Below, one piece after another: positions 11 through 19,406 of a stretch of 64,000 bases of DNA. How positions within the stretch are numbered: position 1 is the stretch's first letter; each line of letters opens with the position of its first letter. Position numbers and translations under genes: made by a program. Under the pieces are notes generated by a model. The model was given only the letters and a program-made list of their open reading frames with translations, was not told the DNA's origin and did no database searches. This stretch comes from a virus (Duplodnaviria > Caudoviricetes). The stretch lies in the IMG/VR virus record IMGVR_UViG_3300024252_000005; one strand, given 5' to 3'.

Positions 11-40
11 ATTATATATCAATGCAAGTTAAGTTGCACG
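11..40 (-). promoter_or_regulatory. Promoter copy P1 CGTGCA-N18-TATAAT
   Basis: Read directly on reverse complement; its gene lies left of the window. Confidence 0.8.
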
Positions 41-238
41 TTATAGGTAACTCTCTGTCTCTGTGATGTATGTGTTGATTGGAGTGAGTTGCTCACCAGT
101 ATGCAGTGTCATCCACTTATCCTGAACGTGAGTATATCCAGAACTCTTAAGCTCTTTAAGCTTATTAACACGTTGCTCAACGTCGTGGGGAAGATTAATG
201 TTTTGATCATCTTGATCGTAGTGGACATGAAATACCAT
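41..238 (-). CDS. Hypothetical early protein (65 aa)
   Basis: ORF track; AAGGA RBS upstream; lies directly downstream of promoter copy 272-302; stop codon abuts the next promoter copy. Confidence 0.7.
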   Translation of the reverse strand: MVFHVHYDQDDQNINLPHDVEQRVNKLKELKSSGYTHVQDKWMTLHTGEQLTPINTYITETESYL

Positions 239-271
239 GTTAAGTTCCTTTAGTGATATGGATTATGGTTT

Positions 272-302
272 ATTATAATACCTTTATTAACTGAGTTGCA
301 CG
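272..302 (-). promoter_or_regulatory. Promoter copy P2 CGTGCA-N19-TATAAT
   Basis: Read directly; the only copy with a 19-nt spacer. Confidence 0.75.
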
Positions 303-322
303 CCAACTCGACGACCCAGAGC

Positions 323-847
323 CTATGCAGGCTGTGTAAGATCCTCGTTGCGTGCCTTAACATCCTCTAGGAAATCAAGGATCTTCTTCTCATGGCCGTC
401 AATGTGCGAAGTATCGAGACCACCAGAAGCCTGAACATCACGCATCTTGTCGAGGCGAAGCTGAAACCATTGGAATCCGTCAAGCAAGATAGTCTTTGGT
501 GAAATGTTTACCGGAGTAAACTCTTCGCTCATATCGATGTCTTTGTTGTTCATGTGATCCCATTTGTTGACACCGTGATAGTGACCCAAGATGTCTTCAT
601 AATCAGTACAATTCGACCAACCTGAGTTCCAGTAAACGTAGCCATGAACTTCTTTCATGAAAGCGTTCGCATCGTTGAATGACTTGCGAAGACCCGGATC
701 AAGTGACTCGATGAAGTTGTCACGGATATCTCTGAGCTCTTGCGTCTCTCGGAATCGTTCACGTGGTGTCTCAATTGAGCTCCACTTTTCGTTATACGTA
801 TTGTGGTTATATGTAATTGTATCTCGAACTTGTTGTCTCGTTGGCAT
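323..847 (-). CDS. Hypothetical early protein (174 aa)
   Basis: ORF track; AAGGA RBS between the upstream stop (859-861) and ATG. Confidence 0.8.
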   Translation of the reverse strand: MPTRQQVRDTITYNHNTYNEKWSSIETPRERFRETQELRDIRDNFIESLDPGLRKSFNDANAFMKEVHGYVYWNSGWSNCTDYEDILGHYHGVNKWDHMNNKDIDMSEEFTPVNISPKTILLDGFQWFQLRLDKMRDVQASGGLDTSHIDGHEKKILDFLEDVKARNEDLTQPA

Positions 848-858
848 GTCAGTTTCCT

Positions 859-1047
859 TTAGTGAAGTGTTTTACGAATAGGCAGAGCGATAGAGTCATC
901 GTACGACTTAAGAAGCTTTCGAACTTCTTGACGATCAATACGCGTGAAAAGTCGCAACTCATTACGACCAACTGCTGTATAACCAAGTCGTTTATTTGTA
1001 TGAGATCGCGAACCGAGGCGATGAGAGTGTCGATTAATTGCTGCCAA
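859..1047 (-). CDS. Small basic hypothetical protein (62 aa, TTG start)
   Basis: AAAGGA 7 nt before TTG, downstream of promoter 1081-1110; preferred over the overlapping 849..1052 frame. Confidence 0.55.
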   Translation of the reverse strand: MAAINRHSHRLGSRSHTNKRLGYTAVGRNELRLFTRIDRQEVRKLLKSYDDSIALPIRKTLH

Positions 1048-1080
1048 GTCACTGTCCTTTGTTGATGTTGATTATGGTTT

Positions 1081-1110
1081 ATTATACCACGTCGTTAAAC
1101 GTATTACACG
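1081..1110 (-). promoter_or_regulatory. Promoter copy P3 CGTGTA-N18-TATAAT
   Basis: Read directly on reverse complement. Confidence 0.8.
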
Positions 1111-1335
1111 TCAAATGATCTTGGTTGTCGGGTTCTGATCGTCCATCACACCATCACAAATCTCTCCTGGGTCGAATTCGTAGAGATGAAAACTCCCGTC
1201 GCTCATAACAACTGTTATTACGTTACCACGCGTCGTCACAGTCTTTACTTCACGAGGATTCACGTTCAATTCGTCACACACTTCTTGAAGGTCGATCTCT
1301 ACTCGAGTTGAGTAAGTTATTTGAATCGTTGACAT
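1111..1335 (-). CDS. Hypothetical early protein (74 aa)
   Basis: GAAAGG RBS; own promoter at 1384-1413; stop abuts next promoter. Confidence 0.75.
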   Translation of the reverse strand: MSTIQITYSTRVEIDLQEVCDELNVNPREVKTVTTRGNVITVVMSDGSFHLYEFDPGEICDGVMDDQNPTTKII

Positions 1336-1383
1336 AGTTAACCTTTCGAAACGTCGTTAATGATTGGTTGTCCTTACATCTAT

Positions 1384-1413
1384 ATTATAGACTAAGGTAT
1401 TGTTATTTGCACG
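1384..1413 (-). promoter_or_regulatory. Promoter copy P4 CGTGCA-N18-TATAAT
   Basis: Read directly on reverse complement. Confidence 0.8.
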
Positions 1414-1448
1414 CCGAGCTCGACGCTACAAGCCGTAGCCACTGCGAA

Positions 1449-1850
1449 TCAGTAACCCATGACTTCGTTGTAAGCTTCACACCCACCCATCATACCAGCC
1501 TCCATCGCGATCTCACGTCTCCAGTCTTCCATCCAGTCATCGTCATCACCATCCTCCGTCGCTTCACGAACAAGCTTGATGTCGTCAGTGTCCCAAGGAT
1601 TGAACTTTTGACCATATCTCACACCGCCGTTGAGGAGCTCCATATTCTTTCCCATGGCGTTTTCCTTGTCCTCCCAGTCTTCGCCTTCGTAAACCCAGAT
1701 CGCGTCACCATCACCACACCTCGCAAGACTCACCAACTCTTCGAGAGTATACTCTCTGCCCACCTCGAGAATAACCGTGTCACACCAGTCGTCGTTGTGA
1801 ATTGGGTCGACGTTGCTCCCAGTAGTCATTAAACATTTGATGATTCCCAT
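1449..1850 (-). CDS. Acidic, Trp-rich hypothetical early protein (start reassigned to ATG 1850)
   Basis: GAAAGG RBS sits just before ATG 1850, not before GTG 1868; own promoter at 1900-1929. Confidence 0.75.
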   Translation of the reverse strand: MGIIKCLMTTGSNVDPIHNDDWCDTVILEVGREYTLEELVSLARCGDGDAIWVYEGEDWEDKENAMGKNMELLNGGVRYGQKFNPWDTDDIKLVREATEDGDDDDWMEDWRREIAMEAGMMGGCEAYNEVMGY

Positions 1851-1899
1851 AGTAAAACCTTTCGTCACGTTGTTAATGTTTGTTTGTCCTTACATCTAT

Positions 1900-1929
1900 A
1901 TTATAGACTAAGGAATTGATTGTTACACG
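1900..1929 (-). promoter_or_regulatory. Promoter copy P5 CGTGTA-N18-TATAAT
   Basis: Read directly on reverse complement. Confidence 0.8.
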
Positions 1930-1945
1930 TCGTTTCGACGACGTG
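1926..1945. terminator. Perfect 8-bp hairpin CACGTCGT-TTCG-ACGACGTG overlapping the -35 of P5
   Basis: Perfect inverted repeat downstream of the 2022..2801 gene; no U-tract, so terminator function is uncertain. Confidence 0.35.
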
Positions 1946-2021
1946 GAGCCTTGTCACGGCGAATCAGATCTTTGTAAGATCGATCCTATCGAAGCGAGGC
2001 CAAACGACCTAGGTCTTTGAA

Positions 2022-2801
2022 TCAGAAGATGTCATCGTTGAGGTCGTCGTCGTAGTCATCCTCGAACTCGTCGTTACTGAGGCCTTGTGATGAGAGGTAA
2101 GCTTCCCAAGCTTCAGGATCATCAGAGTCAGGGACATCACTCGGAGTCTCGTCGTCTGGTGTCTCCACCTCGTCAACGACTTCAGTTGTCTCGGTCTCCT
2201 CAGCTTCAGGCTCTTTGGCTTCGCTCGGTGAGGCAATGACCTCGAGCTTCTCTGAGTGGGGAGTTCCTCCTAATGGAGAGATCACATCGTCAAGTCCAAC
2301 AGCAGGTAAGATAAGCAACTGCCTTTGATGATCATCTTTGGATCCACTTGTTCGAACTTCGAAGGCTGCCATATGAGCCTTGCTTTTAGGGTCGACGCGA
2401 GGTCCTGAGTAGCGAACCCATGCGTAGCCAGCTTGCGTCGTCCATGCCTTGTAGGCTGAGCAATCGATGCCATCCTCCTCGAACTCGTCAAGACTTGGGT
2501 TAACGACGTCAAGGGCAACTTGAACCCACTTCGCTCCGCGACCAGCAAACATTGCCTTCTGCTCACGACGCCAATCGGAGCCAGATCCATTGGCAGTCTT
2601 GCCAGATCCTGAGCAAAGGTGCTTGATGTCAGTCTTGATGAGACCATCAATATGCTTCTTGAAAGCAGTTACCTTAGGATCGCCTCCAGCTGCAATAAAC
2701 TGCTCGAACAAAGCTTTAATATGATTAACTTCTGTCATTGTATCCTCAATTGTTGGGTTTGATGTTGGGATGTTTTGGGTAGATTGAGTATCAGTTGTCA
2801 A
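2022..2801 (-). CDS. Hypothetical early protein with long acidic C-terminal tail (259 aa, TTG start)
   Basis: AGGAG RBS 5 nt before TTG; own promoter at 2833-2862; D/E-rich last ~70 aa. Confidence 0.8.
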   Translation of the reverse strand: MTTDTQSTQNIPTSNPTIEDTMTEVNHIKALFEQFIAAGGDPKVTAFKKHIDGLIKTDIKHLCSGSGKTANGSGSDWRREQKAMFAGRGAKWVQVALDVVNPSLDEFEEDGIDCSAYKAWTTQAGYAWVRYSGPRVDPKSKAHMAAFEVRTSGSKDDHQRQLLILPAVGLDDVISPLGGTPHSEKLEVIASPSEAKEPEAEETETTEVVDEVETPDDETPSDVPDSDDPEAWEAYLSSQGLSNDEFEDDYDDDLNDDIF

Positions 2802-2832
2802 AATGACTCCTAAATGGTTGGGGTGATGTTTT

Positions 2833-2862
2833 ATTATAATAGGATTAGATTAATGTTACACG
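2833..2862 (-). promoter_or_regulatory. Promoter copy P6 CGTGTA-N18-TATAAT
   Basis: Read directly on reverse complement. Confidence 0.8.
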
Positions 2863-2936
2863 ATAGATGATGGACCTGTTGTTTCCTTAATAATTAACTT
2901 TGATTCATATTTAACTCCTTTCCTCTAGTACTTTTT

Positions 2937-2966
2937 ATTATACCATCTGTCTCAATTAGTTACACG
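2937..2966 (-). promoter_or_regulatory. Promoter copy P7 CGTGTA-N18-TATAAT
   Basis: Read directly on reverse complement. Confidence 0.8.
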
Positions 2967-2992
2967 ATCCAACTCGACGACCCGAAGGGCTG

Positions 2993-3058
2993 TCAACGCA
3001 AGTTCTCGAGATCAATGATGATCGATGCAGCTAAGAAGAGAATAATCAAGGTAAGCAT
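2993..3058 (-). CDS. 21-aa hydrophobic mini-protein MLTLIILFLAASIIIDLENLR
   Basis: Below ORF-track cutoff; GAAAGG RBS 6 nt before ATG; dedicated promoter copy 3122-3151; hairpin after the stop. Confidence 0.5.
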   Translation of the reverse strand: MLTLIILFLAASIIIDLENLR

Positions 3059-3121
3059 ATGATGCCTTTCAACTTAAGGCTCTAACATGAGGACGAAGGC
3101 CTCGTTTTTGCCTGACCTGTT

Positions 3122-3151
3122 ATTATATAACCTTCAGGCGATAGTTACACG
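3122..3151 (-). promoter_or_regulatory. Promoter copy P8 CGTGTA-N18-TATAAT
   Basis: Read directly on reverse complement. Confidence 0.8.
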
Positions 3152-3303
3152 ATTAATACGCCGGACGCCAGAGTTCTCACATCATCACCAAGAAACGTGT
3201 AACTTGGTAATTCAACTGACCGGGAAACCAACGATGTCAAAGATCTGAAGGGAAGAGGCATGCCTCTTTTGGAACCACCGTTCCTATCCCCCCTTATGTT
3301 CTT

Positions 3304-3333
3304 ATTATAATATGCCACGTCGCCGGTTACACG
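3304..3333 (-). promoter_or_regulatory. Promoter copy P9 CGTGTA-N18-TATAAT
   Basis: Read directly on reverse complement; rightmost copy, abuts the GC-rich junction. Confidence 0.8.
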
Positions 3334-10352: not shown

Positions 10353-11120
10353 TTACCAACTAAAAATTATTCCACCTTTCAGCATAAAGTCTGTATTTTC
10401 TACTTTTTCTGACGGTACTGTGTCGTACAAATAAGTAATAGCTGTATCTATTCCTAGACTATATTCACTTCTATTAACAATAGAAGATCTAAGTTTAATC
10501 TCGCTATTAATTCTATAGTCACTATGATTAAACAATAAGGGCTGATAGTAAGTTACAACAGAGACAAAACTGGAATCATTTTCATTGAAATATTTTGTTA
10601 AAGTAAAATAAGAAGTTATTCTTGAGTGTGTTGTTGTTTCATAAGATAATTGCTCATGATCTGACATTATGCCTAAACCTGAAGATATTTGGAAAAGATT
10701 ATTGTTTTGTAGAGGCTTTTCAAATCTTATACCGACACCATTGAGTTGTCTTAAGCTTAAGTCTCTAAATTCATTATACTGAGTTTGAGTAAATATTTCA
10801 TATCCTAAAAATTCATGCAACATAATAGTATATCTAAAGTGGACAAAAGCGTTATTCTTGTAAATCTCTTTGTCTTGAAATCCTTTGCTTGCTGAACCCT
10901 TTAGCAAGATATGATTTTTGTTTAATTTATAGTGTAAGTCTTTTTTAATTTCGTATACTTGAGAATTAACATTGCCTTTTTGAAATTGAATATTTACTTT
11001 AAACTCTCCGTAAAAGCCTGTTTTAGTTGCTGAGTTCCTAAAAGATTCAATGTTTACTTGCGCAAACAAAGTATTGCAAGAAAGCAATACTATTATTAAT
11101 GTTGATATTATGCTTTTCAT
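10353..11120 (-). CDS. Outer-membrane beta-barrel protein, DUF481-like
   Basis: Cleavable signal peptide (...TLFA|QVNIE), alternating hydrophobic beta-strand pattern, C-terminal aromatic motif IIFSW. Confidence 0.65.
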   Translation of the reverse strand: MKSIISTLIIVLLSCNTLFAQVNIESFRNSATKTGFYGEFKVNIQFQKGNVNSQVYEIKKDLHYKLNKNHILLKGSASKGFQDKEIYKNNAFVHFRYTIMLHEFLGYEIFTQTQYNEFRDLSLRQLNGVGIRFEKPLQNNNLFQISSGLGIMSDHEQLSYETTTHSRITSYFTLTKYFNENDSSFVSVVTYYQPLLFNHSDYRINSEIKLRSSIVNRSEYSLGIDTAITYLYDTVPSEKVENTDFMLKGGIIFSW

Positions 11121-11137
11121 TTAAATTCCATTTGATC

Positions 11138-12532
11138 TTATAAGTTTCTCTGCAATTTGGGAAATACAGCTTTTAAGTTTTTAGGTAGTTTAACTCTACT
11201 ACTGTTTTTAATTTGATCTATAACTTCTTTAGACAAAGTTATGGCTTTAGGAGCAGATCCAAATATTTCTTTAAGATTAAGTATTTGTGCAATTTCTGGC
11301 ACACCTTTTTTACTCCCATCAATATATTTTTTATGTGAATAAACTGTGCCCCCACCACCTTCTGTATTTCCTTCTACAGTTTCATACCACATTCTACCTG
11401 ATTTGTTGTCTATTCCTACATCTTTGACAATAGCAAAATGTTGTGCATAAGGAGAATGTTTTTTAGGATAAAGTGCAACTATGCTCCCAACGAACAATAC
11501 TTTTTTAATTGCATTTGATTTTTCTTTAATAGATCTGTCTTTAAAATCTTCATGATTATAAGCCATATCTTCGCTATCTATATAATTTTTATATACTCGG
11601 CGAGCGCTAGCAAAAGATGATATTTTCGTATCTATTTCACCTCTAGATAGAATTCCAGCAATCATTACACCACACCAAGATACTTTCTCTAGACTGTCTG
11701 GAACTTTATCTGTGCTTATTCCTAAATCATTTTTTATATTTTTATAAAGGTCTTCTGTGAGCCATACTGTAATTGTGTTAGTTCTTGCAGTTGAAGCAAT
11801 AGATGAAACCATTGCTGAATATTCTTTCCATTTAGGGTGAGACTGACATTCTTTTTTAATTTCTGACATTTCTTTGTTTGATTCTATTGATTTCCCATCG
11901 TTAACTGTATACTTATAGAACAACTTGTATCTATTTTCTCTATTTAGCTCTAATGCTCTTTGACCCTTTTTAGCGCTACCTATTGTCTGGTAAAGTAATT
12001 TGTTTTTTGCAAAAAGTGTAGTTATCCATATAGATTTAAGATAAGGGTCGTTTTGATACTCTTGATAATCAGAAGTTTGTCCTTTGGCCGCTGACAAGAC
12101 TTTTCTAACTTTTTCTACTTGTTCCTCTATTTCTTTTGCTTTGTTTAACTTGCTTTTTAATGAAGCACCTTTTACTTTGCCTCTTTCAGAATATTTTTCT
12201 ATGTCTTTTTTTATTTCGTCAATTAACTCTTTTGGTGACTTCTTGCTCTTGTCAACAGTACCTGAATCACCGTCAACAGAAGCTATTTTTTCTAAATGCT
12301 TTATAGAATCCTTAGGCATTTCACTACTGATATCGCTCGTAGAATTACCAGCTAATATACCAGTTCCTATACCTGAGAGTAGAGCTGCCAAAGCTAACTC
12401 TTTTGTTCCTTCATTTAACAAAAGATCTTCTTCTATTTGTTCAAACAGCTTATCACTTTTATATGAAACATTATTTTTTTTCATTGACAATAGCTTTTTA
12501 TATGTTTCTATTTCTAGACTTTTTACTTTCAT
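11138..12532 (-). CDS. CHAP-domain (Cys/His amidase-peptidase) protein, possibly virion-associated
   Basis: SWCGVMIA (Cys), QHFAIV (His), ETVEGNT; N-terminal LLLNE followed by a hydrophobic segment. Confidence 0.65.
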   Translation of the reverse strand: MKVKSLEIETYKKLLSMKKNNVSYKSDKLFEQIEEDLLLNEGTKELALAALLSGIGTGILAGNSTSDISSEMPKDSIKHLEKIASVDGDSGTVDKSKKSPKELIDEIKKDIEKYSERGKVKGASLKSKLNKAKEIEEQVEKVRKVLSAAKGQTSDYQEYQNDPYLKSIWITTLFAKNKLLYQTIGSAKKGQRALELNRENRYKLFYKYTVNDGKSIESNKEMSEIKKECQSHPKWKEYSAMVSSIASTARTNTITVWLTEDLYKNIKNDLGISTDKVPDSLEKVSWCGVMIAGILSRGEIDTKISSFASARRVYKNYIDSEDMAYNHEDFKDRSIKEKSNAIKKVLFVGSIVALYPKKHSPYAQHFAIVKDVGIDNKSGRMWYETVEGNTEGGGGTVYSHKKYIDGSKKGVPEIAQILNLKEIFGSAPKAITLSKEVIDQIKNSSRVKLPKNLKAVFPKLQRNL

Positions 12533-12591: not shown

Positions 12592-12894
12592 ATGAAAGTA
12601 AAAGATAATTTATATATAATACAGTCTGATTTAACTGGAATGATAAAAATAGGTAGATCTAAAGATCCAGCGAAAAGATTAAAACAGCTTCAAACTGGTA
12701 ATCCTAATAAACTAAAATTGATCGCTTGTTTTGAAGGTGAAGGATGGAAAGAAAAAATATTACATGAAAGATTAGAAAAGTTTAGATTGCAAGGCGAATG
12801 GTTTAGTTATAGTTGCGTAGGAAGTATACCTGATAGTATTTATGAAAAAATAAATTGGGGATCTTTTGATAATTGGTGGGAAAGTAATATTTAG
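12592..12894 (+). CDS. T5orf172/MUG113 (GIY-YIG-like) nuclease domain protein
   Basis: LYIIQ...IKIGRSKDPAKRLKQLQTGNP...EKILH...GEWF. Confidence 0.85.
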   Translation: MKVKDNLYIIQSDLTGMIKIGRSKDPAKRLKQLQTGNPNKLKLIACFEGEGWKEKILHERLEKFRLQGEWFSYSCVGSIPDSIYEKINWGSFDNWWESNI

Positions 12895-13408: not shown

Positions 13409-13894
13409 TTAAATATCTTTTTCTCTATCAGTTTCTGGCAACCATTCAGCGACGTGTTTATTCAATATGATATCTTCTTCTGTATTGTGTTTTATTATTT
13501 TTTTTCCGTTCCATATAGGCAGTTTTTCAACTAGCGCAGTTTGAATGTCATTCAACTGCTCAGTTTTAAGTTGGATTTGTATTTGAGCATCTCTAAGTCT
13601 TCCTATTAGTGCTTCTCGATCAGCATTAGCAGCTGATAGCTTGTCTTTTAGCTCATCTATTTCTGCTGGGTCTTTACCTGCAGCAATCGAGAGCATGCTT
13701 GAAATGCTGCCAGTTAACATTCCTATTATACCTATTAGTATATCACGGTTTTCTTCTTGTATTTTAACGTACGTTAAAAATATGATCAATGCGACTATTA
13801 AAAGCATAAAGACTACAGACGCCCACCATCCCCTTTTAGCTTTTTCTATCTGATTAAACTGTTTATTTGTTTTTTCTTCTTTTTGATCGTTCAT
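13409..13894 (-). CDS. Membrane protein (2 TM + coiled coil)
   Basis: Two hydrophobic helices then heptad-rich segment. Confidence 0.75.
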   Translation of the reverse strand: MNDQKEEKTNKQFNQIEKAKRGWWASVVFMLLIVALIIFLTYVKIQEENRDILIGIIGMLTGSISSMLSIAAGKDPAEIDELKDKLSAANADREALIGRLRDAQIQIQLKTEQLNDIQTALVEKLPIWNGKKIIKHNTEEDIILNKHVAEWLPETDREKDI

Positions 13895-13906: not shown

Positions 13907-14341
13907 TTATATGTCAACTTTTTTAATTAGAAGATAAGAGAAGTCGTTGTTTATAGAACATGTACCACCTACAGCAGTAACTTTTACTTTAACGGTCTTT
14001 GTACCTGACTCAACTGTTACAGCTGCAACAGATCCATCTATTCCTACTTTATTGTCTTGTGTAGATGAACCTTTAGTGTCTTGCTCAACATTGTCTACTA
14101 GTATGTTCCATTCAGCATAGTTTGAAATATTGTTTGAATTATTTATACCTAGACAACACTCTATAAGATAGTGTCCAGAGGATATAACAATATTATCTGA
14201 ATTTATTGTTGTTCCATTGGTATTATTATAAATAGCTGCAGTATTAAAGTCAACTAAGTCATTTAAAGACAAATTGCCTGAGTTGTTTGTTTTTATAAAC
14301 GCAACCTTCATCGTTTTATATTCTACAGATATATGTGTCAT
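13907..14341 (-). CDS. Small beta-rich hypothetical protein (start reassigned to MTHISVEYK)
   Basis: ATG at 14341 follows the upstream stop (14343-14345); the ORF-track extension overlaps the upstream gene. Confidence 0.7.
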   Translation of the reverse strand: MTHISVEYKTMKVAFIKTNNSGNLSLNDLVDFNTAAIYNNTNGTTINSDNIVISSGHYLIECCLGINNSNNISNYAEWNILVDNVEQDTKGSSTQDNKVGIDGSVAAVTVESGTKTVKVKVTAVGGTCSINNDFSYLLIKKVDI

Positions 14342-14342
14342 G

Positions 14343-14843
14343 TTAAAGTCTCCATATACAACATCTTGCTCTTCCTGCGTAGATTTGACTCGAGTCATCA
14401 TCGTCAATATCATCTATACCAACTGCGTTTAGTATTCTTAGCTCATATGCGTTGTTTTGATTTGTTATAAATATTGCTTTTTCATCAGCTACAGTACCGA
14501 ACGTTCTGCCTTCATTATAATTATAAGATCCAGCGATAAAAGCTTTTATTCCTACATAAGCAGCATTTGTTACGTCATACCACTGGTATGTTACATATGA
14601 ATCAAGTCCTCCACTAGCTAGATGTGTATTAGAAGTCAAATTAGCTTCTAAAATATATGTTTTGCTGTCATTTGGCAATGTAAATTGTGCTCCGTTTTTT
14701 GTTAAAGAAAAATTATTGCTAAAACTAGAGTCTAAACTAGACCATGTAACAGGTTCATCTTGCCCTATTGTCGCTGAACCGCTGTGATAAATATTTAGAT
14801 TTCCATTTATTTTTTTGTTAATAATGTCTTTAATATAAGTCAT
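14343..14843 (-). CDS. Small beta-rich hypothetical protein (MTYIKD...)
   Basis: ORF track; ATGA overlap with upstream gene. Confidence 0.75.
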   Translation of the reverse strand: MTYIKDIINKKINGNLNIYHSGSATIGQDEPVTWSSLDSSFSNNFSLTKNGAQFTLPNDSKTYILEANLTSNTHLASGGLDSYVTYQWYDVTNAAYVGIKAFIAGSYNYNEGRTFGTVADEKAIFITNQNNAYELRILNAVGIDDIDDDDSSQIYAGRARCCIWRL

Positions 14844-15256
14844 GACAGATCTATTCTTATTATTTTCATATTTGCTCTTTCAACATCTTGTGCTAGTGTT
14901 ATTGAAAGAGAGTTTTGATATTTTGGATAGTGTGAATTACCGTTATAAATAGCAATGTCATCGCTTCTTACAGATGCGCCAGCACCAGTAATAGAACTTT
15001 CAGGCATATTTGATCCCATTAGATGTAAATTACTAGTATTGCCGCTGTAATGAATTCTAGCTAGTCCGTAAGCATTTGAGTTTGGAGAAAAACAAGCCTC
15101 ACTATAATAGCTGCTATTATCAGAGGATAGTATATTGTCTCCACTCAAGCTTAACCAGTTAACATTAAAAGTATTAAACGTGGCGTCTGTAGTTCCTGAT
15201 ATTTTTCCTATATCGAAAGGTGAAACTTCTCTAGCAGTATTTTTTATATAAGTCAT
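14840..15256 (-). CDS. Small beta-rich hypothetical protein (MTYIKN...)
   Basis: ORF track; similar N-terminus to neighbours. Confidence 0.75.
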   Translation of the reverse strand: MTYIKNTAREVSPFDIGKISGTTDATFNTFNVNWLSLSGDNILSSDNSSYYSEACFSPNSNAYGLARIHYSGNTSNLHLMGSNMPESSITGAGASVRSDDIAIYNGNSHYPKYQNSLSITLAQDVERANMKIIRIDLS

Positions 15257-15333: not shown

Positions 15334-16200
15334 TTATATTATGTCTTTTATTTTTCTTATTAGAGGTTTTAAATTTTCAACAATGAAATCCCTTACTACA
15401 TCTAAGTATTCGAAAGGTTTTAATATTAAATAGTCGACACCCCAGAGATTTTTCGATTCGCTGTTAGAGATAAAAGGCCAAGTTATGCATATAATATAAA
15501 ATATTGATATAACAGCAAGTTTTGGTAGCAACCATAGTGTCAATTCTTTTATTTTTTTATCTCGCAGCTTACTTTTTACTTTTTTTGGTCCACCAAGTCT
15601 TTTAGCTTTTTCGTTGCCCTCTGGAGGTTGTAGTGATTCGATTAATTCTCCTACAGCGTATATAACTTGAGTCTCTGCTACACCTTTAAACTTATATAGA
15701 CCCACCATTACATATCTAGTGCCTTTTGGTGTCCAATGATTAGTTCTATTCTTAATTGCTGAAAATGCTTCTTTAGTCAAAAGAACTTGCTTTGGACCAC
15801 AAATGCTCATAGTTCGAGCAGCGATATTTTTGCCAATTCCTTCGAGTTCAACGCCCTTAGCACCCATAAGTGCATATAGTTCATCTTGTTGAACTTCTAT
15901 TACTTTACCCCAGTGAATACCTATTCTTGTATCTAATTTTGTTTTTTGTGGTATAGTTTTTTGGTAGTGCAAGGCAAAATTAACAGCGTCTATTGTAGTG
16001 TCAAAAGACATTAAGAAGCCGTCACTTCTATCTATTTCTCTTCCTTGAAATTTATAGCATAGATTTCTTGCCATTCTGTCGTGATATTGAAACCACTCAG
16101 CAGCTTTTACAGCGCCATACTTTTGAACAAAAGCAGTTGAGTCTATTATATCTAATAGAACTATAGCAAGATTTTTTTCTTTTAAAGTTATAGGTGACAT
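15334..16200 (-). CDS. Class III nucleotidyl (adenylate/guanylate-type) cyclase domain protein with C-terminal TM helix
   Basis: LLDIIDST and RSDG metal-binding Asp motifs, RIGIHWG, KNIAAR (Asn/Arg); hydrophobic helix near the C-terminus. Confidence 0.8.
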   Translation of the reverse strand: MSPITLKEKNLAIVLLDIIDSTAFVQKYGAVKAAEWFQYHDRMARNLCYKFQGREIDRSDGFLMSFDTTIDAVNFALHYQKTIPQKTKLDTRIGIHWGKVIEVQQDELYALMGAKGVELEGIGKNIAARTMSICGPKQVLLTKEAFSAIKNRTNHWTPKGTRYVMVGLYKFKGVAETQVIYAVGELIESLQPPEGNEKAKRLGGPKKVKSKLRDKKIKELTLWLLPKLAVISIFYIICITWPFISNSESKNLWGVDYLILKPFEYLDVVRDFIVENLKPLIRKIKDII

Positions 16201-17299: not shown

Positions 17300-18925
17300 A
17301 TGAGCAATACATGGATTAAATATTTTCCTTATGAGAAACCTAGAGAGCAACAAACTAATGTTATTGATAAAGTGCTTAAAGAATTTGAGAGTGGCAAAAA
17401 ATATGCTGTTATAGATTGCGGAACAGGAGTTGGTAAGTCTGCAATTGGTTTAACTATTGCAAGCAAAATAAACAATTCTTCTAATTTTGAAGGAAATTAT
17501 GAAAATGGTGCATATTTTTTAACGACACAAAAGATACTACAAAATCAGTATGAAAAAGATTTTTCAAAAAACGGATTAATTTCTCTTTATTCTTCTTCTA
17601 ATTATACTTGTACTACAGATAAAAAAGCTTCTTGCAAAGAAATACAGACTGGAATTAGATCTAACAGTCTTCCTGAAAAGTATAAGTCTTGTAGTTATAA
17701 TTGTGTTTATAAACAAAAAAAGAAAAGTTTTATAGAGAAAGATTTAGGAATAACAAACTTCAGTTACTTTCTTACAGAGAAGAATTATAGTAAAAAATTA
17801 CCGCATAAGAAAGTTTTAATAGTTGATGAAGCGCATAATTTAGAGAACGAACTTTCTAGATTTATAGAGATTAGTGTATCTTCCCACTTTTCAGACAAAA
17901 TATTAAAAACAAAAATACCTAGTGAGATTAACACTCAGTTTAAAGCATTTAAGTGGATTAAAGATGTTTATTTAGATAAAGTTACTTCAAAAGTTAATTT
18001 TATTAATGCACAAATAGAAAAATTTGGAATTACCTCTTCTAAGCTAGACGACTTTAAAAAGATAACAGCTAGGCTTGATATGTTATCTTCACATCAAAAG
18101 AAAATAAGTCAATTTATAGAGATATATGACAAAGACAACTGGGTTTTTGATTTTGAAAAATCATCAAAAGACAATTTCAAGTTTATTTTTAAGCCTATAG
18201 ATATATCTTCTTATGCAAAACAATATTTGCTTGATTTTGCAGACTATGTAATCTTTATGTCTGCTACAATTATATCACACGAAGGATTTAGTATATCTTT
18301 AGGTTTGTCTTATGAAAAAACTGTATTTATCAAAGAAGAATCACCTTTTCCAGTAGAAAATAGACCTGTTTTGTTTTGTCCTGCAGGCAGCATGTCATAT
18401 AGAGCTATAGATAAGACTTTGCCTAATTTAGTAAAAATGTTAGAAGCAATATTTGATAATCACAAAGAAGAAAAAGGTATTGTTCATACACATAGCAATA
18501 AAATTGCTTATTACATTAAGAATAATATAAACAAAAAGTATAAGAGAAGAATACTGCTTGCATTTGGTGAAGATCGAGAAAAAATGTTATTAAAACATAA
18601 GAACTCTAATCAGAAAACTGTTTTGATTTCTTCTTCTATGTCTGAAGGTGTCGATTTAAAAGGTGAGCTTTCAGAGTTTCAAGTATTATGTAAAATACCT
18701 TTTCCGTTTCTTGGCGACAAAGTCGTAAAAAAGAAGATGAACAAGTGGAGTTGGTGGTATAACACGGAAACTGTTAGAACTATTATACAAAGTATTGGAA
18801 GAAGCATAAGATCTGAAGATGACAAAGCAGTCACATATATACTTGATGGTGACTGGAAAAGAATCAAATCAAAATCATCAGGTATGCTTCCAAGCAACTT
18901 TTATAAAAACTATCACGAGTATTAA
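17300..18925 (+). CDS. DinG/Rad3-like SF2 ATP-dependent DNA helicase
   Basis: GTGVGKS Walker A, DEAHN Walker B, SAT motif III, EGVD, QSIGRSIR motif VI; Cys cluster in the Fe-S position. Confidence 0.9.
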   Translation: MSNTWIKYFPYEKPREQQTNVIDKVLKEFESGKKYAVIDCGTGVGKSAIGLTIASKINNSSNFEGNYENGAYFLTTQKILQNQYEKDFSKNGLISLYSSSNYTCTTDKKASCKEIQTGIRSNSLPEKYKSCSYNCVYKQKKKSFIEKDLGITNFSYFLTEKNYSKKLPHKKVLIVDEAHNLENELSRFIEISVSSHFSDKILKTKIPSEINTQFKAFKWIKDVYLDKVTSKVNFINAQIEKFGITSSKLDDFKKITARLDMLSSHQKKISQFIEIYDKDNWVFDFEKSSKDNFKFIFKPIDISSYAKQYLLDFADYVIFMSATIISHEGFSISLGLSYEKTVFIKEESPFPVENRPVLFCPAGSMSYRAIDKTLPNLVKMLEAIFDNHKEEKGIVHTHSNKIAYYIKNNINKKYKRRILLAFGEDREKMLLKHKNSNQKTVLISSSMSEGVDLKGELSEFQVLCKIPFPFLGDKVVKKKMNKWSWWYNTETVRTIIQSIGRSIRSEDDKAVTYILDGDWKRIKSKSSGMLPSNFYKNYHEY

Positions 18926-18926
18926 T

Positions 18927-19406
18927 ATGGAAAAAAAACAAAAGCCTTCAGGTGCAGGAATAGTATGTTACTTTGATAATAGGTCTGGTGATATAAAAAA
19001 ACATGAAAAAGATATTCTATATCTATGTTTAACAACTCATAAAGGAAGATACGACTTCCCTAAAGGAGCGATTGACTATAAAGAAGAAATTGAAGCATGC
19101 GCGCTTAGAGAAACATATGAAGAGTGTAATTTAGATCTTTTTGACTTTGCAAGTTTATCTGACTACAGCTTTCAGTGTGGAAGAGGATTGTTCATGTTTC
19201 TAGGAGAGATAAAGTCAAGTTCTATAAAGAGCATAAAGATAAAAATGAATCCTAAAATTAAAATATACGAACATACGGGATTTAAGTTTCTTACTATTGA
19301 AAGTATATTAAAAAAAGATGAAATTCTAGGCAAACAAAGACTTTACAGTTATCTAATAGATTCTCTAAAATGGGCAGATTATATTATACGTGATGCTCTA
19401 GAATAA
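18927..19406 (+). CDS. Nudix hydrolase (start reassigned to ATG 18927)
   Basis: Nudix box GAIDYKEEIEACALRETYEECNL; PKG before the box as in Ap4A-hydrolase-like members. Confidence 0.85.
   Translation: MEKKQKPSGAGIVCYFDNRSGDIKKHEKDILYLCLTTHKGRYDFPKGAIDYKEEIEACALRETYEECNLDLFDFASLSDYSFQCGRGLFMFLGEIKSSSIKSIKIKMNPKIKIYEHTGFKFLTIESILKKDEILGKQRLYSYLIDSLKWADYIIRDALE

Follow-up and report, generated by a model that had tools for sequence, protein, structure and literature searches.

The 64,000-nucleotide stretch of viral DNA analysed here (hereafter, the window) carries a gene whose product a preliminary description read as a membrane-anchored class III nucleotidyl cyclase, with unusual residues at the positions that select the base. 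The features of the gene are as follows.

15334..16200, minus strand: cyclase gene, 288 aa, ATG start; membrane-anchored class III-type protein of viral clade A of the TIGR04510-type domain
15586..16176, minus strand: predicted cytoplasmic cyclase domain, residues 9–205, from profile alignment and fold match
15460..15546, minus strand: predicted transmembrane (TM) helix of the cyclase, residues 219–247, from hydrophobicity and the AlphaFold2 model
16150-16152, 16030-16032 and 16021-16023, minus strand: codons of D17, D57 and D60
15847-15849, 15826-15828 and 15814-15816, minus strand: codons of E118, N125 and R129

The AlphaFold2 model of the cyclase, for which 70 family members served as input, has a mean pLDDT of 87.9 and a pTM of 0.76. 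Among solved structures, Foldseek matched it best to Rv1900c (PDB 1ybt/1ybu) and Ma1120 (PDB 5d0e), with target-normalised TM scores of 0.88–0.92 and RMSD values of 1.6–2.2 Å. The best solved sequence matches are likewise Rv1900c/LipJ (PDB 1ybt, 1ybu) and Ma1120 (PDB 4wp9, 5d0e), with profile E-values of 1.4e-19 and 3.9e-16, respectively, and the LipJ cyclase domain model matches the window protein at 7.7e-11. Pfam PF00211 is missed marginally, with 21.5 bits where the gathering score is 21.9, and precomputed PF00211 matches are present on many close homologs. As modelled, the class III cyclase (CHD) fold of the window protein is secure. Identity to the mycobacterial cyclases is about 22%, and the architecture differs: the domains of Rv1900c and Ma1120 are soluble and fused to other modules, whereas the window cyclase is anchored by a TM helix.

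This anchor is the only hydrophobic segment of the protein (residues 219–247; Kyte-Doolittle maximum of 2.09 in a 19-residue window). It coincides with a helix at residues 217–245 in the AlphaFold2 model and is followed by a C-terminal tail of approximately 40 residues. Since eight Lys or Arg residues lie within the 15 residues ahead of the TM segment, the cyclase domain is placed in the cytoplasm. The same hydrophobicity threshold is reached by 56 of 70 family members, and most of the others fall just short of it. The single C-terminal helix, together with the fold match, bears out the first reading of a membrane-anchored class III cyclase.

The assignment to a phage also holds. Neighboring open reading frames (ORFs) match PHROGs for a DNA helicase (2.2e-108) and PhoH (7e-98), and further matches nearby include a structural protein, a baseplate wedge subunit, and glycosyltransferases. 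In tblastn searches, the helicase and baseplate proteins are 27–32% identical to their counterparts in jumbo and large myophages. The cyclase itself has no match in PHROGs, and among deposited phage genomes there is neither a DNA match to the region nor a protein match to the cyclase (tblastn). Its relatives are found elsewhere: 343 on IMG/VR viral contigs and at least 847 in the protein database, where they are mainly metagenomic, are in several cases labelled "class 3 adenylate cyclase", and include nearest homologs of 93% and 85% identity. Tara Oceans samples are among the protein-database sources of relatives of the cyclase and of its partner, described below. BFVD contains viral proteins of this fold with other architectures; giant viruses and a small number of uncultured Caudovirales are their sources. 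As for transcription, a CGTGYAA...TATAAT promoter occurs nine times in the window, always within 11–3333; the window scan gave no copy upstream of the cyclase, and a generic promoter and terminator scan remained at background level.

The catalytic residues were mapped with HMMER, by which both the window protein and the profile of its family were aligned to Rv1900c and Ma1120. D17 and D60 align with the two metal-binding Asp residues, R92 with the phosphate-binding arginine of the RxGxH motif, and N125 and R129 with the transition-state Asn/Arg pair, so that the Asp/Asp/Asn/Arg set first noticed in the letters is indeed retained; the metal Asp residues and the Arg residues are common to all three proteins. 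D17, D60, R92, and R129, as well as D57, H96, K115, and K124, are invariant in all 70 family members. E118 and E120 are each present in 69 of them and N125 in 62, and the latter is retained in every sampled cyclase of viral clades A and B.

The base-selecting positions required a correction. Canonical pairs at these positions are Lys/Asp for ATP and Glu/Cys for GTP, and neither is present in the window cyclase. The preliminary description was right in its letters (IDRSD at residues 56–60 and ELEG at 118–121) and in calling the positions atypical, but I56, which simple residue counting puts at the Lys position, is displaced by D57 in the profile alignment to solved cyclases. The column can be identified from Ma1120, whose wild-type and "KDA to EGY" chains differ there, with Lys in the former and Glu in the mutant, and D57 rather than I56 falls in it owing to a hairpin turn that is shorter by one residue. 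E118 occupies the second base-selecting position. D57 and E118 thus stand for Lys and Asp of Ma1120, and for Asn and Asp of Rv1900c, which we take to be N342 and D395; Rv1900c likewise lacks Lys at the first position. In addition, the window cyclase has about five extra residues before E118, including the invariant K115, compared with Rv1900c and Ma1120. In cGMP-forming PucC and in rhodopsin guanylyl cyclase, the Lys position holds an acidic residue, as it does in the window protein, and this residue selects guanine there (preprint 10.64898/2026.08.12.744502). By this analogy, D57 weakly argues against a standard adenine pocket and favors a guanine-like one, which should be regarded as a lead only.

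The nearest family accounts for these unusual residues. As the preliminary description had suspected, the domain resembles that of NCBIfam TIGR04510, the "putative peptide modification system cyclase" (E 2.4e-44, 152 bits, model positions 7–204 of 814). The two kinds of domain share about 35–41% identity, an extension to approximately residue 205, and a common signature (D17, S21, T22, I56, D57, D60, R92, H96, K115, E118, E120, K124, and R129). Membership in the family itself was rejected: the curated cutoff is 400 bits, true members score 670–795 bits, and the window protein is devoid of the TPR region. Cellular TIGR04510 proteins, from Variovorax, Myxococcota, Rubrivivax, and others, are 800–900 aa long and combine the cyclase with TPR repeats; in the window protein a TM helix replaces the TPR region. 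Among 60 sampled cellular domains of this type, D57, H96, K115, K124, and R129 are present in all and E118 in 56. By these sequence comparisons, the residues described as atypical are thus the signature of the whole TIGR04510-type clade and are not peculiar to this phage.

The two groups are nevertheless distinct. In a tree of 97 viral and cellular domains, the viral anchored cyclases (SH-aLRT 100, stem 0.55) are separated from the long cellular proteins (SH-aLRT 99, stem 0.55), and the viral clade was found only on viral contigs and has its own partner gene. Across the genomes of 185,579 prokaryotic species, the only cyclase relatives are TIGR04510-type domains of no more than 41% identity. 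Viral clade B is nested within clade A on a long branch of 1.04 substitutions per site. Its loci (L173, L174, L175, L191, and L203) carry the motif L[IV]DASDGH and an Asn at the E118 position, and their gap between cyclase and partner is 1.2–3.2 kb, which in L173 contains a 425-aa CHAP-like ORF. The two groups differ also in the transition-state Asn. The window cyclase keeps it, whereas the 60 cellular relatives have Pro (40), Ala (11), or Val (3) among the residues at this position; in this comparison, Asn occurs only in viral clades A and B.

Because the cellular relatives carry Pro, Ala, or Val in place of this Asn, the chemistry of the clade may depart from standard cyclization. The fold might then serve to nucleotidylate proteins or peptides, to form a nucleotide that is linear or unusual, or as no more than a regulatory module that binds nucleotides. 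The signature private to the clade (D57, H96, K115, K124, and, in most members, E118), which characterized cyclases do not use, and the peptide-modification name of the relatives agree with this alternative, as does the lack of any paper mentioning TIGR04510 in the literature searched. However, the metal Asp residues, the phosphate Arg, and R129 are invariant, the Asn is kept in viral clades A and B, and the closest solved structures are active adenylyl cyclases. A cyclase fold that does not form a cyclic mononucleotide is thus regarded as distinctly unlikely. In five genomes, the neighborhood of cellular TIGR04510 genes yielded a single TIGR04509 match, which is below threshold.

Downstream of the cyclase, the following features are found.

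14840-15256, 14343-14843 and 13907-14341, minus strand: three tightly packed small ORFs between cyclase and partner
13409..13894, minus strand: partner gene, 161 aa, two predicted TM helices and a coiled coil

Wherever downstream sequence existed among the 16 IMG/VR loci examined first, a homolog of the partner directly follows the cyclase. The sample was then composed of up to 80 viral loci collected from each gene as a separate seed. Where there was room, the partner is present in 91 of 91 cyclase-seeded loci and the cyclase in 74 of 75 partner-seeded loci, so that the two occur together in 165 of 166 informative loci; in the one exception, a partner-seeded locus, no cyclase lies within 4 kb. 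The genes always share a strand and mainly abut; the projected gap between them has a median of about −36 nt. In five loci, an insert of 1.2–3.2 kb separates them, and in the window the separation is 1.44 kb. The cyclase is therefore one half of a nearly invariant two-gene module, which the preliminary description, confined to the single gene, did not contain. At one locus (L245:4001-5316), the order is reversed, with the partner first and the cyclase 2 nt behind it.

The pair is found on viral contigs only. Relatives of the partner number 305 in IMG/VR and at least 1321 in the protein database; none is present in the representative genomes of 185,579 prokaryotic species, and its closest clusters in the atlas are 100% viral. 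One copy each is present in five genomes of 95% completeness or more (36.5, 37.8, 240, 297, and 312 kb), so the module crosses very different phage types. Its neighbors vary and include ThyX, PhoH, a 2OG oxygenase, and a terminase-like gene. Pairs of closely related loci gave a median dN/dS of 0.055 in the cyclase gene and 0.029 in the partner gene; judged by these ratios, both genes encode working proteins under strong purifying selection.

Within the module, the two genes appear not to have always travelled together. The partner of the window is 85% identical to those of L173 and L174, yet the clade B cyclases of these loci are only 46–47% identical to that of the window. Conversely, where the cyclase shares 69–70% identity with that of the window, as in L003, the identity of the partners is about 58%. 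Since the identities of the two proteins are discordant across these loci, the sequences imply a mosaic history, with recombination between the cyclase and partner genes.

The partner is predicted to span the membrane twice, at about residues 22–43 and 52–72, and to continue after TM2 in a 53-residue helix (residues 76–128); a conserved L..V.EW.P motif lies in its C-terminal part. TM2 contains the invariant small residues G55, G58, T61, G62, and S65, which, from the sequence, would be as expected for tight helix packing. Its structure model is of moderate confidence (pLDDT 66.9, pTM 0.26). No Pfam domain exceeds its threshold in the partner and there is no match to the cNMP-binding domain PF00027, which 10 phage records carrying the module lack as well. 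Longer forms of the partner or fusions with the cyclase were searched for and none was found, which by its nature is weak evidence.

A cyclase encoded next to a small membrane protein recalls the Pycsar and Pucsar TM systems, which likewise comprise two genes, one of them for a class III-fold cyclase. The product of the cyclase could then gate the two-TM partner as a SLATT-like, membrane-disrupting effector, giving a phage-borne version of Pycsar or CBASS logic used for superinfection exclusion or for killing the cell when a competitor invades. SLATT proteins are predicted to be nucleotide-responsive pore formers (PMC7159879), and SLATT_fungal PF18142 matches 30 of 40 partner homologs (best E 3.2e-5). 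The variable surroundings of the module and its spread over phage types would also suit a mobile cassette. Yet none of the PF18142 matches is shown above the 26.5-bit cutoff, and unrelated multi-TM families match the homologs equally often (AbrB 35/40, UPF0014 33/40); the SLATT matches of the partner were therefore judged non-specific. PADLOC gave scattered, inconsistent matches for partners and no family at E ≤ 1 for the window cyclase. In the effectors of Pycsar and Pucsar, a cNMP-binding domain is joined to a TIR domain or to three TM helices, whereas the partner has no such domain and two TM helices. Moreover, the window module is absent from cellular genomes and evolves slowly, unlike those systems; by its dN/dS of 0.03–0.055, it does not look like an arms-race effector. 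Finally, a diffusible signal leaves unexplained why the cyclase is itself membrane-anchored, which the Pycsar and Pucsar cyclases are not. A signal-gated pore is hence rather unlikely, although it is the main rival of the explanation favored below.

Membership in Pycsar and Pucsar was rejected. Neither gene of the module matches the Pycsar or CBASS models, and PycC models gave nothing at E ≤ 1 for the window cyclase, its relatives reaching only E 0.003–0.05. Of the families among which the preliminary description proposed to place the protein by HMM and phylogeny, the TIGR04510 type has thus held, with a viral clade of its own in the tree, and PycC has not. A further known setting of phage cyclases is the curli (T8SS) cluster of pelagiphages, uncultured marine phages of very different genome sizes, which carries CsgG, CsgF, FecR, and an adenylate cyclase reported to be closest to alphaproteobacterial versions (PMC9599517). 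By that description it differs from the window cyclase, which is closest to the TIGR04510 type. CsgG (PF03783) is absent from all 10 module-bearing phage records, eight of which are at least 95% complete, and a link of the module to curli was rejected.

Two distant viral loci bear on the role of the partner. L251:2669-3798 and L252:2648-3768 encode C-terminally anchored cyclases with the motif EIDKTDGF and Pro in place of Asn. Each is preceded by a different small protein (101–103 aa) that combines a single TM helix with a coiled coil, and tail or baseplate-like genes are nearby.

We favor, tentatively and as somewhat less than an even chance when taken as a whole, an active membrane cyclase with a non-catalytic control subunit whose product is read by host receptors. 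The window gene would encode a catalytically competent class III-fold nucleotidyl cyclase whose enzyme domain is cytoplasmic and whose C-terminal helix tethers it to the inner membrane of the host. The partner would be non-catalytic, a membrane subunit that serves as scaffold or gate for the cyclase dimerization needed for activity. Such a role is suggested because the partner consists only of two TM helices and a long helix, because the anchor of the cyclase would be needless if a diffusible signal were the sole link between the two, and because what recurs in L251 and L252 is a membrane anchor plus coiled coil and not a ligand-binding fold. Linkage alone does not show contact, and both the physical contact of the two proteins and the regulatory role of the partner are what we infer from these features. 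While infection proceeds, the complex would synthesize a second messenger of nucleotide type, which is probably a 3',5'-cyclic mononucleotide. No recognizable cyclic-nucleotide receptor is encoded by the phages, so the readers of this signal would be host proteins or the partner.

The small size of the partner, its two TM helices, and its charged cytoplasmic tail would also fit a holin or antiholin, the firing of which the cyclase might tune to time lysis. In the subgroup of the window, the pair indeed lies near an ORF with sub-threshold CHAP or lysozyme matches and a DUF481 outer-membrane protein. This pairing is local, however: the CHAP-like ORF and DUF481 accompany the module in the close subgroup of the window only, and among about 170 loci an endolysin-like ORF is present in one and a DUF481 neighbor in eight, the neighbors elsewhere being ThyX, PhoH, a 2OG oxygenase, or terminase. 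With 42 invariant columns across 40 sequences, the partner is also far more conserved than usual holins. Control of lysis timing is accordingly judged very unlikely. In the window, the region 10353-12532 (minus strand) holds a 464-aa ORF that is 28.5% identical to an L173 ORF with a sub-threshold CHAP match, followed by the DUF481 protein (E 1e-14).

Cyclic nucleotides are central to bacterial antiphage immunity, in which CBASS, Pycsar, Pucsar, and Panoptes participate. To our knowledge, the phage side has consisted mostly of enzymes that degrade these signals and sponges that sequester them. The present module, conserved and restricted to phages on hundreds of marine viral contigs, from 36-kb genomes to 312-kb jumbo phages, points instead to phages that would themselves produce a nucleotide signal at the membrane of the host, since it is phage-only, strongly conserved, and widespread. 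A bolder and rather unlikely extension is that the TIGR04510-type domain makes a nucleotide signal other than cAMP or cGMP and that marine phages have made of it a self-sufficient membrane device of two proteins, which reports the state of the envelope of the infected cell and acts through the partner; this state would be, for example, superinfection or readiness for lysis. If true, it would constitute a virus-specific second-messenger pathway with no cellular counterpart. Because the catalytic signature is common to the module and to TIGR04510, identification of the product would annotate both the viral module and the large cellular clade, and the small soluble cyclase domain and two-gene layout make the module directly testable.

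The three small ORFs (138, 166, and about 144 aa) have the N termini MTYIK, MTYIK, and MTHIS, and showed no Pfam match and no detectable mutual similarity. Downstream of the partner gene, L175 has two of these ORFs and L191 has all three; most loci lack them. Judged by this distribution, they are probably an inserted cassette that moves around the module and not part of its core. Just past the partner, a 100-aa ORF at 12592-12894 (plus strand) contains MUG113/T5orf172 domains (E 1.8e-12 and 1.4e-8) and is present in eight related loci at 69–82% identity; it may be a gene of mobile-element type tied to local rearrangements. On the other side, 2.6 kb from the cyclase and after the helicase, an ORF at 18819-19406 (plus strand) has a NUDIX domain (E 2.2e-7).
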